Below are positions 14,307-56,428 of a stretch of DNA of 64,000 nucleotides, piece after piece. The notes under the pieces were generated by a model, which was given only the letters and a program-made list of their open reading frames with translations, was not told the DNA's origin and made no database searches. Position 1 is the first letter of the stretch. Every line of letters begins with the position of its first letter. Position numbers and translations under genes: made by a program. Source of the DNA: Bacteroidota bacterium (GTDB lineage Bacteria > Bacteroidota > Ignavibacteria > UBA10030 > SZUA-254); assembly GCA_036522515.1 (NCBI GenBank), contig DATDFQ010000057.1, positions 5,175 through 69,174 on the forward strand, read 5' to 3'.

Positions 14307-14512
14307 GGTAGGCGCGACCTTCAGGTCGCGTGCAGGCGCAGGCTAAAGCCTGCGCCTACCGTAGGGGCGACGCATGCGTCGCCCGGAATGATCGTGATAC
14401 CTGAAACGCCGGGCGGGGCATGCCCCGCCCCTACAACAACGGTTAATGGATGTCGGTAGGCGCGACCTTCAGGTCGCGTGCCGGATGACGCAGCCTAAAG
14501 GCTGCGGCTACC
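14307..14512. repeat. Cluster of six GTAG-tagged REPs arranged as three inverted pairs
   Basis: GGTAGGCGCGACCTTCAGGTCGCG / GCGCAGGCTAAAGCCTGCGCCTACC; GTAGGGGCGACGCATGCGTCGCCC / GGGCGGGGCATGCCCCGCCCCTAC; GGTAGGCGCGACCTTCAGGTCGCG / GCAGCCTAAAGGCTGCGGCTACC. Confidence 0.92.
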
Positions 14513-16192: not shown

Positions 16193-16713
16193 GCAGCCAC
16201 CCCGAGGATCTGTGTAATGGTGATTTCGCGCAGGTCGCGGCTCCCGCGACACGCCGGACCGGGGCCGGTCCGTGTTCCGGAAATCGGCCCTGTCCCGAAT
16301 TTCAACACGACGTCATACCTTCTTGCCGGAAGAACGGCCGCCGCCTTTTCGGCCCACTCGATGAGGCAGACTCCGTCTCCCGAAACGTATTCCTCGAAAC
16401 CGAGGTCGCGCAGTTCGGCGATCGAGTTCACGCGGTAGAGATCGAAATGGTAGATATCGAATGCGGCCGTATGATATTCGTTCACGATGGTGAAGGTCGG
16501 GCTTGCGACATGTTCGTTGACGCCGAGCGCCTTGCAAATTCCCTGGATGAAGCGGGTCTTGCCCGTCCCCAGCTCCCCGTAGAGCGCGACGGTATCGCCC
16601 GGTCGGAGCCTCCGGCCAAGGTCCCCGCCGAGGCCCGCGGTCTCCCGTTCCGTACGTGTGTTGTAGGTTTCCGGGGGAGCCGTACCGCCCTCTGCGCTAC
16701 GGTTTCGGGTCAA
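16189..16713 (-). CDS. tsaE: tRNA threonylcarbamoyladenosine biosynthesis ATPase TsaE
   Basis: LYGELGTGKT, VASPTFTIVNEY, YHFDLYR, CLIEWAE. Confidence 0.95.
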   Translation of the reverse strand: MTRNRSAEGGTAPPETYNTRTERETAGLGGDLGRRLRPGDTVALYGELGTGKTRFIQGICKALGVNEHVASPTFTIVNEYHTAAFDIYHFDLYRVNSIAELRDLGFEEYVSGDGVCLIEWAEKAAAVLPARRYDVVLKFGTGPISGTRTGPGPACRGSRDLREITITQILGVAA

Positions 16714-18271
16714 GCGTGACCACGGGAAGTATCATCTCCTCCATCGATATTCCGCCGTGCTGGAAACTGTCGCGATACTGGTTCACATACTTATGGAACT
16801 CGGTCGGATAGACAAAGTAATAGTCTTCCTTCGCGACCAGGTAGTTGATGGTCACGCTTCGCTTGGGCAGCCGGAAATCGGCCGGGTTTTTCACGAAGAT
16901 CGCATGGCGTTCGTCGCACTTGAGGTTTCTCCCGTACTTGTAGCGCAGGTTCGTGGACGCTTCCCTGTCGCCGATCACCTTCGTGCTTCGAAGGCTCCGG
17001 ATGCTCCCGTGATCGGTCGTCAGAACGATCTTGACGTTCTTCTGCCGGGCGAGGGTTTTCAACATTCCGAGAAGCGACGAGTGCATGAACCACGATTGCG
17101 TCAGCGACCGGTACGCGGCCTCATCCGGCGCTATTTCCTTCAGGAGCTGCGAGTCGGACCGCCCGTGCGCGAGCATGTCGACAAAGTTCACCACGATCGA
17201 GGTGAGCGGGTTTTTGGCGTAGGAATTGATGCTCTGCTCGATGCTGCGGCCGAACTCGGGGTCCAGGATCTTCACATACTTCGACTCGGGCTTCAGATGC
17301 ACCTTCCGGCGCTCGAGCAGGTTCTCCAGGAACTGATGCTCATACCGGTTCTGGCTGTTGTCGTCGTCCTCCCATTTTTCCCAGATCTCCGGAAAGCGGA
17401 CCTCGATCTCATCGGGGAAGGCGCCGCTGAAAATCGCGTTGCGCGAATAGGGAGTCGCGGTCGGAAGAATCGAATAGTAATACTCGCGGGAGATGTCGAA
17501 ATACTCCCGCAGCACCGATTCCATCATCATCCACTGGTCCATCCGGAGGCAGTCGATGACGAAAAAGAAGACCGATCGCCCGGGCTGGAGCTGGGGGATG
17601 AGGTATTTCTCCACGATGTCGACCGAGAGGGTGGGGCGCTTCGCCTGCCCGAGCCAGTGCCGGTAATTCCGTTCGATGAATTTCGAAAACTCGACGTTGC
17701 ACTCGCGGAACTGGTCGGTGAGCGTCTGCTTGAGCCCGAGCTCGGGGTGGAGGTCGAGCTCCAGCGACCGGTCCACGAGCTTCGCATAGAGCGCGGTCCA
17801 CTCGTCCGCCGTGAGATTATTCTGCAGCGCGATGGAAATCTCGTTGAATTCCTTGATGTAGTCGCGGGAGACATGCGCCCCCGTGATTTTCCTTCCCTCG
17901 AGGAATTTCTTGCAGGCAAGGAGGACCTGGCTGGGATTGACGGGCTTGGTCAGGTAGTCGCTGATCTTGACTCCGATCGCCTCCTCCATCAGCCCTTCGT
18001 CCTCGTTTTTCGTGATCATGACGACCGGAAGCTCGGGCCGGATGTCCTTAATCATGGAGAGGGTCCGGAGGCCCCCGATGCCGGCCATCATCTCATCGAG
18101 AAACACGAGATCGAACGACCGTTCCTTGACGAGCTGAACCGCGTCCTCCCCGTTCGTGGCGGTCTCGACATTGTACCCCTTTTCCGAAAGGAGAAGAATA
18201 TGAGACCGGAGAAGCTCGATTTCATCGTCAACCCAGAGAATTTTGCCTTTCGTTGCAGTCATGACGGTCAT
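16697..18271 (-). CDS. porX: T9SS response regulator PorX (receiver plus PglZ domain)
   Basis: ILWVDDEI receiver domain, VIDCLRMDQW, LPTATPYSRNAIFSG, TTDHGS, FQHGGISMEEM; adjacent to tsaE as in Bacteroidota. Confidence 0.92.
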   Translation of the reverse strand: MTVMTATKGKILWVDDEIELLRSHILLLSEKGYNVETATNGEDAVQLVKERSFDLVFLDEMMAGIGGLRTLSMIKDIRPELPVVMITKNEDEGLMEEAIGVKISDYLTKPVNPSQVLLACKKFLEGRKITGAHVSRDYIKEFNEISIALQNNLTADEWTALYAKLVDRSLELDLHPELGLKQTLTDQFRECNVEFSKFIERNYRHWLGQAKRPTLSVDIVEKYLIPQLQPGRSVFFFVIDCLRMDQWMMMESVLREYFDISREYYYSILPTATPYSRNAIFSGAFPDEIEVRFPEIWEKWEDDDNSQNRYEHQFLENLLERRKVHLKPESKYVKILDPEFGRSIEQSINSYAKNPLTSIVVNFVDMLAHGRSDSQLLKEIAPDEAAYRSLTQSWFMHSSLLGMLKTLARQKNVKIVLTTDHGSIRSLRSTKVIGDREASTNLRYKYGRNLKCDERHAIFVKNPADFRLPKRSVTINYLVAKEDYYFVYPTEFHKYVNQYRDSFQHGGISMEEMILPVVTLDPKP

Positions 18272-18362: not shown

Positions 18363-18445
18363 CTCGTCATGCTGACATGCTCCTGGTCAGCATCTTTCAA
18401 CGCTTTTAGAAAGATCCCGACCAGAAACATGTCGGGATGACGAGC
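18363..18445. repeat. CGTC-tagged REP inverted pair (REPIN-like)
   Basis: CGTCATGCTGACATGCTCCTGGTCAGCATCT (18365-18395), a 16-nt spacer, then AGATCCCGACCAGAAACATGTCGGGATGACG (18412-18442). Confidence 0.9.
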
Positions 18446-25845: not shown

Positions 25846-26076
25846 GGTAGCCGCAGGCTTTAGCCTGCGTCAGGCTGCACGCGACCTGAAGGTCGCGCCT
25901 ACCGACGCTTCGGGCTTGGTAGGCGCAGGCTTTAGCCTGCGTTTGTTCGGTTTGGCATGTCGCCTGATGTAGGGGCGACGCATGCGTCGCCCGCTAGGGT
26001 CATCGTATCATCTGAGCTTCCGGGCGGGGCATGCCCCGCCCCTACAAAGGCACGCGACCTGAAGGTCGCGCCTACC
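25846..26076. repeat. Second GTAG REP mosaic cluster (six REPs)
   Basis: Same arms as 14307-14512, plus a repeated linker CCGRYGCYTCGGGC near 25830, 25902 and 26075. Confidence 0.92.
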
Positions 26077-28640: not shown

Positions 28641-28694
28641 GTATTTGTCGCGGAAAAGAATTAAGATCCCGACCTAGAGCATGTCGGGATGACG
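28641..28694. repeat. 54-bp direct repeat, copy 1 (AT-rich tail plus CGTC hairpin)
   Basis: GTATTTGTCGCGGAAAAGAATTAAGATCCCGACCTAGAGCATGTCGGGATGACG; 51/54 identical to 29297-29350. Confidence 0.92.
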
Positions 28695-28747: not shown

Positions 28748-28963
28748 TATCTCGTTCCCACGCTCTGCGTGGGAAGGCACATGTCGGCCGCTCCGCGGCC
28801 TGAGTCAATCTGCTGTCCCTCCCCCTCGTCATGCTGACATGCTCCTGGTCAGCATCTTATCTTGTTCCCACGCCCTTCATGGGAAGGCACATGTCGGCCG
28901 CTCCGCTGCCTGAGTGAAGTTGCTGTCCCTCCCCCTCGTCATGCTGACATGTTTTAGGTCAGC
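28748..28963. repeat. Tandem duplication of a 110-bp composite unit
   Basis: Each unit is a TCGTTCCCACG..GTGGGAA palindrome, the linker GGCACATGTCGGCCGCTCCGC..CCTGAGT....TGCTGTCCCTCCCCCT and a CGTCATGCTGAC hairpin. The offset is exactly 110 bp (28751 vs 28861; 28811 vs 28921). Confidence 0.92.
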
Positions 28964-28980
28964 GGCTATGAGGCTTCGCC

Positions 28981-29277
28981 TCACCATGTCCAGGGAATCT
29001 CCTGAGATAGATCACGCATATCCGGATTGACCGACTGGATGAGACGAATCTTCCACTCCCTGTGCCACTTCTTCAGCGCTTTCTCTCTTTGGATCGCTTC
29101 CCGGATCTGATTGAACACTTCGTAATAGACCAGGTCCTTGAGTTTGTACTTGGTTGCGAACTTCGAGCCTGCAGTATCCCTGTGAGTTTGAACGCGTGCG
29201 CGCAGATCAGTCGTCACACCGGTATAGAATGTCGTGCGGTTGAAGTTGGAAAGGATGTAAACGTAGCTGGGCTTCGT
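28981..29277 (-). CDS. Small GIY-YIG nuclease (about 98 aa); ACG at the start position, possibly a pseudogene
   Basis: The frame upstream of the track's GTG reads (T/M)KPSYVYILSNFNRTTFYTGVTTDLRARVQTH...LVYYEVF..IREAIQREKALKKWHREWKIRLI..VNP.MRDL. GGGGGAGG lies 6 nt upstream of ACG at 29277. Confidence 0.88.
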   Translation of the reverse strand, partial: TKPSYVYILSNFNRTTFYTGVTTDLRARVQTHRDTAGSKFATKYKLKDLVYYEVFNQIREAIQREKALKKWHREWKIRLIQSVNPDMRDLSQEIPWTW

Positions 29278-29296
29278 ACCGGGCCTCCCCCGTATC

Positions 29297-29350
29297 GTAC
29301 TTGTCGCGGAAAAGAATTAAGATCCCGACCTGAAGCATGTCGGGATGACG
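29297..29350. repeat. 54-bp direct repeat, copy 2
   Basis: GTACTTGTCGCGGAAAAGAATTAAGATCCCGACCTGAAGCATGTCGGGATGACG. Confidence 0.92.
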
Positions 29351-29359
29351 CCTTCGGCG

Positions 29360-30331
29360 TCAGAACCGGTACTCGATGCGGGCTTCGGTGACGGGGGCGA
29401 CGCCGTACTGGGTCGGCTCCACCCTCATCTTCACGCTCGCATGCAGGGAGTGGTTGTAGCGGGTGGCGGACCAGTAGGCGTCGAGCGCGCTCACGATGTG
29501 ATTCACCACCGCGACGCTCACGAAGGTGCTCGCGATGTCGTACTGGTTGTTCGCCTGCGCGCGCATTTCCGCGTACTCGTAGAACCTCTTCGAATTGCTC
29601 CTCAGGGGAAGGTCCGATTGCGAAATCGGCCGGAGGTCCGCGTCGTCCCAGCCACGGCTGAACTCGTCGTACTTCCCGATCAACTCATAGTATTGCTGGG
29701 CCCCGTAGTAGGGGAGCTGGTGCGTGTAACCGTTGGCCGACGCCGCCGAAATATCCCGCTCCAAACGGTTCAGCTCCGTCCAGCGCACGCAGGCGAACGG
29801 CGCGCTGCAATCGGTGGACCCGTTGGGAAACACGTTGTAACTTCCGGGATCGGTGATGGCCGGATTCAGTGTGCCGGCGTTCTGGAGCGTCCAGTTCGCA
29901 TACCGCGCCGCGCTCCAGTGCTGGTCCGCGTAGACCTGAAAATCGCCCGTCTGGCGGTCGCCTTTCTTATTGTACGTGTAGGCGACGATCCAGGAGGTCG
30001 CTTCCACCGCGATGAACGCGGCAGCCTTGATATAGCTCTTCGCATAGAACTCCCCCGCGCCGGGCAATCCGAGAGACAATGCGCCCGCGACCCAGGGGGA
30101 TTTCTCCTCGCCCGAAGTTTGCTCCTCCTCAGGGAGGAGCGGGGGTTGCGAAGGCGACCAGTGGTCGCTCCGGACCGTGACGCTTCCGCCGAAAAAGTCG
30201 ATTGAATGATGCCCGGTGAGCGCGGCCGCGGGCTTCTCTCCGGCCGCGGCGGTCAGTCCGGCGAACGAAAGAGCCATAGCGCAGACCGTCAACAGAAGAA
30301 CCCTGCGCCTGTTATCTGCGTGAGTCGACAT
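29360..30331 (-). CDS. Hypothetical exported or membrane protein
   Basis: Start MSTHADNRRRV at 30331 with an upstream GGAG; signal peptide; KSPWVAGALSLGLPGAGEFYAKSY segment resembling DUF5683/TM2-like motifs; ends IEYRF. Confidence 0.7.
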   Translation of the reverse strand: MSTHADNRRRVLLLTVCAMALSFAGLTAAAGEKPAAALTGHHSIDFFGGSVTVRSDHWSPSQPPLLPEEEQTSGEEKSPWVAGALSLGLPGAGEFYAKSYIKAAAFIAVEATSWIVAYTYNKKGDRQTGDFQVYADQHWSAARYANWTLQNAGTLNPAITDPGSYNVFPNGSTDCSAPFACVRWTELNRLERDISAASANGYTHQLPYYGAQQYYELIGKYDEFSRGWDDADLRPISQSDLPLRSNSKRFYEYAEMRAQANNQYDIASTFVSVAVVNHIVSALDAYWSATRYNHSLHASVKMRVEPTQYGVAPVTEARIEYRF

Positions 30332-38726: not shown

Positions 38727-38812
38727 CTCGTCATCCCGGCACGCTTCTGGCCGGGATCTTCATTCTCGTGCCTTGGTAAAGATGCTGACCTGGAGCATGT
38801 CAGCATGACAAG
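38727..38812. repeat. CGTC-tagged REP inverted pair between porU and porV
   Basis: CGTCATCCCGGCACGCTTCTGGCCGGGATCT (38729-38759), a 20-nt spacer, then AGATGCTGACCTGGAGCATGTCAGCATGACA (38780-38810). Confidence 0.9.
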
Positions 38813-50426: not shown

Positions 50427-50607
50427 CACGCGACCTGAAGGTCGCGCCTACCCGTACCACCTCATTCCCTCGTTCCCACGGAGACCGTGGGAGGGGAACC
50501 CAACAAAAAGCCCGCAAGCTGAAGCTTGCGGCTACCGGTACCTCTGCCGTCATCTCTTGGTAGCCGCAGCCCAACAAAAAGCACGCGACCTGAAGGTCGC
50601 GCCTACC
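50427..50607. repeat. Three same-orientation GTAG REPs with A-rich leaders, enclosing a TCGTTCCCACG palindrome
   Basis: CACGCGACCTGAAGGTCGCGCCTACC twice and CCCGCAAGCTGAAGCTTGCGGCTACC once; CTCGTTCCCACGGAGACCGTGGGA at 50469-50492; lies between convergent genes. Confidence 0.9.
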
Positions 50608-56348: not shown

Positions 56349-56428
56349 TGTCATCCTGAGGGAGCGGAGCGACCGAAGGATCTCCTCTCCATCGAGCACG
56401 GAGATCCTTCGCTTCGCTCAGGATGACA
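56349..56428. repeat. TGTCATCCTGAG-family inverted REP pair
   Basis: TGTCATCCTGAGGGAGCGGAGCGACCGAAGGATCTC ... GAGATCCTTCGCTTCGCTCAGGATGACA. Confidence 0.9.

Follow-up and report, generated by a model that had tools for sequence, protein, structure and literature searches.

How a small nuclease gene came to stand between two hairpin repeats, and what the two have to do with each other, is the question raised by an intergenic locus of an uncultured Ignavibacteria-type soil bacterium (contig DATDFQ010000057.1, positions 5,175 to 69,174 of the forward strand). The window, that is the whole stretch of DNA analysed, spans 64 kb at 60% G+C, and the locus in question holds a GIY-YIG nuclease gene flanked by copies of a CGTC-tagged repetitive extragenic palindromic (REP) sequence. 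An initial annotation had proposed that the enzyme cuts or mobilises this REP family, and that the 414-bp unit of gene plus hairpins is its gene-carrying, autonomous form. Judging from sequence, we consider it probable, at roughly 0.8, that the locus belongs to the Ssn system, in which a gene for a GIY-YIG single-stranded DNA (ssDNA) nuclease is flanked by cognate hairpin repeats (SRMs). A study of it is already in the literature (Chenal et al., 2025, Nat Commun 16:2388, PMC11893778), and the proposal that the nuclease is a cutter of its own REP family matches the published Ssn activity. As such, the locus is a new, slightly divergent example of a system described and tested in 2025, not a new system; the details that are new here are dimorphic A/B doublets, hairpins that mostly fall outside the published motif, and a conserved ACG start.

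The gene and its two hairpins, whose stems belong to the types A and B defined below, are laid out as follows.

28981-29277, minus strand: gene for an Ssn-like GIY-YIG nuclease of a single domain (98 codons and a stop), its start position occupied by ACG (Pfam PF01541, E = 1.3e-14).

28937-28965, plus strand: 3'-side hairpin of type A', degenerate, CGTC-ATGCTGAC-ATGTTTTAG-GTCAGCgg, with its tag directed away from the gene.

29322-29350, minus strand: 5'-side hairpin of type B, on the gene strand CGTC-ATCCCGAC-ATGCTTCAG-GTCGGGAT-C, with its tag directed away from the gene.

A 98-codon GIY-YIG gene between two outward-tagged CGTC hairpins had been recognised from the start, and this description stands, with the corrections that the gene lies on the minus strand, has ACG at its start and is followed on its 3' side by a degenerate hairpin. 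The Pfam match covers residues 17-90 of the 111-residue stop-to-stop frame, in which no other domains were found; an NCBIfam search of the protein gave no match, and the window contains one copy of the gene. The type B hairpin is perfect (ATCCCGAC-N9-GTCGGGAT at 29322-29346, then GACG at 29347-29350) and stands upstream of the start position at a distance of 44 nt. The type A' hairpin lies 15 nt past the stop codon and consists of the CGTC tag (28937-28940), the arm ATGCTGAC, a 9-nt loop and a decayed 3' arm, so that six of the eight pairs form. The layout is thereby repeat-gene-repeat, with tagged hairpins on both nuclease flanks, and three species share the conserved unit from tag to tag.

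SsnA of Neisseria meningitidis is a 94-residue single-domain GIY-YIG protein that binds NTS (CGTCATTCCCGCGMAVGCGGGAATCYRG), a hairpin repeat, in ssDNA alone and cleaves a few nucleotides upstream of it, leaving the reverse strand, double-stranded DNA and RNA uncut, and its cleavage is abolished by the substitutions Y6A, Y17A and E64A (PMC11893778). The three bases ahead of the NTS palindrome (GTC) control cleavage and the C behind the palindrome controls binding. Ssn homologues of three other species cut their own repeats; ssn genes typically have these repeats as neighbours; at least one SRM is present at 71% of ssn homologue loci, and on both sides at 42%; and 81% of the genomes with more than 200 SRMs encode an Ssn homologue. 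In Neisseria the system reduces transformation by repeat-bearing DNA, a restriction of incoming ssDNA in natural transformation (all PMC11893778). The window nuclease keeps every residue that is invariant across an alignment of 134 homologues, including the Tyr/Tyr/Glu triad, and its catalytic spacing, Y-11-Y-47-E, is that of SsnA Y6/Y17/E64. It is 53-55% identical to two proteins (from loci L009 and L014) whose genes have flanking NTS with at most one mismatch.

A search of the whole window with the pattern GTCATSCYGRC-N9-GYCRGSAT, allowing up to two mismatches, found tagged hairpins at exactly eight sites (18366, 18414, 28666, 28828, 28938, 29322, 38730 and 38782), against an expectation of 0.07 from dinucleotide shuffles (n = 100), none of which reached eight. 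Members of the family have a stem of 8 bp, a loop of 9 nt and, on one side, a CGTC tag (TGTC once), and read, tag first, (C/T)GTC-AT-SCYGRC-AYGYTYYWG-GYCRGS-AT-C-TT. Seven of the eight copies keep the order HGTC-AT-palindrome-AT-C, with GTC before the palindrome and C after it. Two stem types are separated by compensating base changes: type A is ATGCTGAC/GTCAGCAT, and type B is ATCCCGAC/GTCGGGAT, with ATCCCGGC/GCCGGGAT once. Both the compensatory stem variants and the loop consensus AYGYTYYWG had already been described, and both were recovered here. None of the nuclease-linked hairpins carries a GTAG tag (all have CGTC or TGTC), the GTAG-type REPs of the window being a separate family.

As short intergenic repeated palindromes with CGTC at one end, the window hairpins are CGTC-tagged REPs, and SRMs are the same thing under a more recent name. 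No associated enzyme gene was found for CGTC-tagged REPs by Di Nocera, De Gregorio and Rocco (2013, BMC Genomics 14:522, PMC3733652), and the premise of the initial annotation that such REPs lack a dedicated enzyme agrees with that study; it has been out of date since Chenal et al. (2025), because both the partnership with Ssn and the cutting are now published (PMC11893778). Chenal et al. do not cite the 2013 paper, and a literature search linking GIY-YIG with REP, REPIN, RAYT (REP-associated tyrosine transposase) or MITE (a miniature transposable element with inverted repeats) returned nothing relevant, the 2025 study avoiding those words.

The association of gene and hairpin recurs among homologues. 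About 165 homologous loci were collected overall, 80 from species-representative genomes of many phyla (43-62% identical) and 80 more from metagenomes; the best relative in the metagenome scan was 62% identical, and this set was used only as a replicate. At most loci the gene is preceded, at 20-50 nt, by a (C/T)GTCAT-tagged hairpin and followed by an inverted copy. The predicted enrichment of tagged hairpins beside homologous nuclease genes is strong: in the genome set they occur in 86 of 141 gene-adjacent gaps versus 14 of 216 of the remaining intergenic gaps at these loci (odds ratio 22.6, p = 5.5e-30), and in the metagenome set in 50 of 107 versus 2 of 46 (p = 6e-8). The nearest tag points outward rather than inward at 59 versus 16 upstream and 52 versus 20 downstream positions. 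Hairpins within one locus are alike (5.9 of 7 stem bases, versus 3.6 for random pairs), and stem sequence tracks protein similarity, an expected co-variation that was indeed found, with host relatedness as a confounder (Mantel r = 0.45, p <= 5e-4). Hairpins with an 8-bp stem and a 9-nt loop are present in all the closest relatives (L087, L088, L090 and L091; 61-77% identical), and the loops of more distant homologues measure 4-6 nt. The published SRM motif, HGTCWYN(0-2)YYVSBRHN(0-5)WNVSBRGN(0-2)RNCYNB, occurs within 200 nt of the gene at 27 of the 164 homologous loci checked for it, compared with about half of the gene-adjacent gaps for the generic tagged-hairpin search; the hairpins of this branch are therefore largely missed by the published motif.

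Homology with SsnA predicts that the window nuclease would bind the folded hairpin solely in ssDNA, with the palindrome and the following C as determinants of this binding. It would nick the strand that reads CGTCAT, a few nucleotides 5' of the GTC tag. Each strand of the cassette formed by the gene and its hairpins, like each strand of a doublet, would then be cleavable at one site, located at the 5' edge of that strand.

The comparison of orthologous loci covered the window, L087 and L088/L089, together with L084/L085 and L086 as outgroup-type relatives and L083, which is partial (contig ends). The cassette, in the order B hairpin, leader, gene and A hairpin, is found at the same lptG-adjacent place in L087 (LptG 91% identical) and in L088/L089 (88%). 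Where it is lacking, the gap between the convergent stop codons is 31 nt (L084/L085, LptG 80%) or 7 nt (L086, 79%); in L083 (LptG 87%), a GTAG-type repeat occupies the junction used by the cassette in the window, ahead of the contig end. Alignable orthologue sequence ends at the tags, and the conserved unit is therefore exactly the 414-bp tag-to-tag segment. Identity among orthologues is 83-93% in the flanking hairpins, 51-57% at third codon positions and 17-50% in the 3' spacer; the type A' hairpin keeps its position and 24-25 of 27 nt in L087 and L088, and 25-28 of 30 nt of the type B hairpin are conserved. The nuclease has dN/dS values of 0.07-0.12 among the three orthologues, including the pair that shares the ACG start, at saturated synonymous sites (pS 0.66-0.77). 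The cassette is a resident, vertically inherited gene of this Ignavibacteria-type lineage and does not behave like a recent insertion.

The relatives also vary in their repeats. Ahead of the nuclease gene, L087 carries five tandem 42-nt units (306-496), each a complete tagged B hairpin, which shows local amplification of the repeat. In L090 (1985-3000; nuclease 61% identical), the gene lies between doublets whose nearest tags face it, so the outward-tag layout is common but not universal. Internal stops or frameshifts are present in the homologues L002, L005, L038, L080 and L001 (second copy), and the family thus includes decaying copies. Near-identical genes in different contexts yielded no clean insertion boundaries for a mobile unit, most such pairs being orthologous loci.

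The start of the gene is unusual. ACG occupies the start position at 29277-29275; the orthologue L088 has ATG at this position, and L087 shares the ACG. Ahead of it lies one further conserved feature.

29284-29291, minus strand: Shine-Dalgarno-like GGGGGAGG, 6 nt ahead of the ACG/ATG position and identical in the window, L087 and L088.

The start region thus delimited corresponds to 29275-29291 (minus strand) in the window, 530-543 in L087 and 1567-1581 in L088, and no sequence variants at the ACG were seen among the strains sampled in the metagenome. Because the nuclease frame stays under purifying selection, the ACG is probably used as a start codon, though a very weak one, and the conserved ACG together with the selected frame suggests a deliberately weak non-canonical start. 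Two convergent genes, lptG (stop 28626) and the final one of the porV operon (stop 29360), enclose an intergenic region of 733 nt, which apart from the nuclease gene consists of repeat material. The nuclease gene is co-directional with the porV operon and lies behind its last gene, so that read-through transcription is likely. No sigma-70-like promoter or intrinsic terminator was found on the strand of the nuclease gene; with no promoter-like site and an ACG start, expression of the nuclease is probably very low and due to read-through. At the same junction, a 7-bp hairpin (TGACGCC-gaa-GGCGTCA, 29346-29362) bridges the stop codon of the upstream gene and the CGTC tag of the B repeat, and L087 has TGACGGC-gaa-GCCGTCA at 290-306, a compensatory change in this junction hairpin.

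Elsewhere in the window the hairpins are paired around a short spacer only.

18365-18442, plus strand: REPIN-like empty A-B doublet with outward tags, between the stop of sprA and the start of the porX-like gene.

38729-38810, minus strand: empty A-B doublet, inverted, with the type B stem variant ATCCCGGC and one TGTC tag, tags outward.

Both doublets had been noted, with the orientation given here. Their spacers had been put at 16 and 20 nt, values that hold only if the flanking CT/AG is counted with the hairpins; from stem to stem they measure 20 and 24 nt. The spacer of the doublets reads CTTTCAAC[G/T]CTTTTAGAAAG; this 20-nt sequence is conserved in its own right and unrelated to the cassette interior, and a derivation of the empty doublets from the cassette by deletion was rejected for this reason. 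Copy numbers were estimated from contig depths in the source soil metagenome. The nuclease gene body has a depth of 57, with unique flanks at 44-46, and is single-copy at >=90% identity; the hairpin segments of the cassette region reach a summed contig depth 25-180 times that of unique flanks. For the 18365 doublet the figure is 170-400 times flank depth, on about 113 contigs, many of them at the genome's own depth. The depth of the doublet spacer nearly equals that of the B arm, so that what is commonly repeated is the A-B doublet, including its conserved 20-nt spacer. The 18365 doublet is absent from the sprA-porX spacer of relatives, and about 26 kb of outgroup sequence contained no member of the CGTC repeat family. 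No contig lacking the cassette or the 18365 doublet was found in the sampled strains, which is weak evidence because contigs break at these repeats. The gene directly downstream of sprA (16697-18271, minus strand) encodes a PorX-like protein with response-regulator and PglZ parts. Since the doublet lies inside the short co-directional sprA-porX spacer, it is probably transcribed.

Compared with the published Ssn/SRM systems, the locus has the same kind of protein (a single-domain GIY-YIG of about 94-98 residues with the same Tyr/Tyr/Glu spacing), oriented (C/T)GTCAT hairpins with a C behind the palindrome on both gene flanks, and a repeat, probably dispersed in many copies, whose sequence co-varies with that of the nuclease. 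It differs in its 9-nt loop and other stems, with which seven of eight copies escape the SRM search motif, in having two stem types mainly arranged as A-B doublets with a conserved 20-nt spacer, and in its ACG start and uncultured Ignavibacteria-type soil host, in which its activity is predicted from homology. With the CGTC-tagged REPs of Di Nocera et al. (2013) it shares short, dispersed intergenic CGTC-tagged palindromes occurring as singles and dimers; here, as in the Ssn study, they are associated with a small GIY-YIG nuclease gene. The arrangement also resembles a domesticated RAYT/REPIN-like system. As in the REPIN-RAYT 'REPtrons' (Nunvar 2010; Bertels and Rainey 2011; bioRxiv 10.1101/2022.05.22.493013), the enzyme gene is single-copy (here at >=90% identity), vertically inherited and flanked by its own hairpins, the repeats are mostly inverted doublets in copy numbers far above that of the gene, and hairpins in ssDNA would be what the enzyme recognises. 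Unlike those systems, the enzyme here is a predicted hydrolytic GIY-YIG nuclease and not an HUH-Y1 (IS200/IS605-type) transposase, the tag is CGTC and not GTAG, and strand transfer is not known. By sequence, the solved structures nearest to the protein are stand-alone GIY-YIG domains of about 100 residues of the UPF0213/YhbQ type (PDB 1ywl and 1zg2); the similarity is marginal (E = 3e-4 and 1e-3), and no repeat association has been reported for them.

Several points weigh against the assignment to the Ssn system. Only one of the eight window copies (38729) matches the SRM motif, the other seven missing it because their stems and 9-nt loop differ. Membership in the Ssn family (CDD cd10448) is predicted indirectly, from conserved residues and from relatives with flanking NTS. 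That one enzyme serves both stem types is unproven, because alteration of the NTS palindrome abolishes cutting in Neisseria (PMC11893778). No ATG, GTG or TTG is present at the start of the window nuclease gene, and no RNA runs were found that hold the gene, so that its expression is inferred from selection alone. Finally, the repeat copy numbers are depths in a soil metagenome and not counts in the genome itself.

It is against this background that other explanations have to be weighed. In the 2025 study, the repeat-gene-repeat arrangement was likened to an insertion sequence and to RAYT/REP, and domestication was suggested (PMC11893778). One could accordingly regard the 414-bp unit as an autonomous mobile element whose GIY-YIG enzyme multiplies the empty doublets as well as the unit itself, in the manner of REPIN/RAYT or of MITEs and their insertion sequences but with another enzyme as the driver. 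Beyond the insertion-sequence-like layout, this would be in keeping with conserved-spacer doublets at about 100 sites, with the absence of the sprA-porX doublet in relatives, with related genes (61-63% identical; L090 and L091) at other loci within arrays of same-type hairpins, and with the pseudogenes among homologues. We nevertheless regard it as unlikely: the cassette is syntenic in three species, under purifying selection and single-copy at >=90% identity, which speaks against the autonomous gene-carrying form put forward in the initial annotation; the empty versus filled sites expected from it were not seen, no contig of the sampled metagenome strains lacking the cassette at its site; the doublet spacer does not derive from the cassette interior; and strand joining is not known for hydrolytic GIY-YIG nucleases, nor has transposition been shown for any Ssn (PMC11893778).

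Two further explanations fit the data less well than an autonomous element does. The gene may be a selfish one of the homing type that once entered the spacer of an A-B doublet already in place; the repeats would then be its target and not its product. GIY-YIG homing endonucleases exist, in which the nuclease domain is linked to a DNA-binding domain of its own and an empty allele is cut in both strands; the nuclease gene does replace the spacer of an outward-tagged A...B pair, and the gene is patchily distributed among relatives; but the window protein is a single 98-residue domain with no separate DNA-binding module joined to it, its gene has persisted in synteny under purifying selection for long, and the tags of L090 face the gene, which is thus not always within a doublet. 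Published Ssn enzymes, moreover, leave double-stranded DNA uncut (PMC11893778), and we consider homing very improbable. It is scarcely credible that the gene is a decaying pseudogene lying by chance in an intergenic repeat 'junkyard', with no functional link to the hairpins. Its lack of a standard start, the other repeat types and tandem units of the region, and the GTAG-type repeat at the same convergent junction in L083 would suit such a view, but dN/dS stays at 0.07-0.12 over saturated synonymous divergence, including between both ACG lineages, all invariant residues are intact, and the hairpin association, with its orientation and spacing, recurs across phyla. Membership in the Ssn system thus remains the preferred reading.

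The remainder of the intergenic region contains further copies of the hairpins.

28641-28694, minus strand: second copy of leader, type B hairpin and tag (54 nt), 94% identical to 29297-29350 and directly past the lptG stop.

28748-28853 and 28858-28963, plus strand: two tandem units of about 110 nt, 89% alike, each an approximately 80-nt segment followed by CGTC and a type A hairpin.

The copy at 28641-28694 is absent at the orthologous loci L087 and L088. The number of the approximately 110-nt units is one in contigs of runs X1 and X2 and in L081 (4208-4318), and two in the window and in L082 (2768-2988); no contigs of runs X1-X4 span 28861-28911, and the difference reflects either strain variation or an assembly effect. 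The approximately 80-nt segments (28755-28810 and 28865-28920) hold two other small hairpins, TTCCCACGC-N3-GCGTGGGAA and GGCCGC-N3-GCGGCC, and are themselves repeated (in run X1, at about 59 times flank depth). Hairpins of a similar kind, with TCCCACG, are present at 50474-50492 of the window and at 1238-1267 of the outgroup relative L086, and together with these segments they look like another family of repeats. RAYT-type REPs with a GTAG tag accompany the CGTC family in the window at 14365, 14411, 25973 and 26022 (regions 14334-14430 and 25973-26041), in the forms GTAG-GGGCGACG-catg-CGTCGCCC and GGGCGGGG-catg-CCCCGCCC-CTAC, and GTAG-tagged REPs also lie at L083 4091-4110 and L086 1317-1475. 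A hairpin with a 12-bp stem, CGAAGGATCTCC ... GGAGATCCTTCG, lies at 56374-56411.

The locus is a well-resolved natural example of an Ssn system outside Proteobacteria and opens no new field. It indicates that a cassette running from tag to tag can stay resident as a gene over the long term, with strong purifying selection acting on it, that Ssn repeats can form dimorphic, conserved-spacer doublets in the fashion of REPINs, and that cognate hairpins can diverge past the published motif, so that surveys using this motif undercount such repeats. It also links the problem posed in 2013, that CGTC REPs lack an enzyme, to the Ssn family, joining two literatures without mutual citation. The new pair of enzyme and site (8-bp stem, 9-nt loop, two stem types) could serve the ssDNA tools proposed for the Ssn family. 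A more far-reaching idea, which we put forward as a doubtful one, is that the A-B doublet and not the single hairpin is the replicating unit, with the single-copy Ssn nuclease as its dedicated partner and the two stem types as distinct left and right ends. If true, this would be a second, independently evolved REPIN/RAYT-like system, based on a hydrolytic GIY-YIG single-strand nickase, and the Ssn family would be the long-sought driver of the CGTC-tagged REP superfamily, with a role beyond the restriction of incoming ssDNA.

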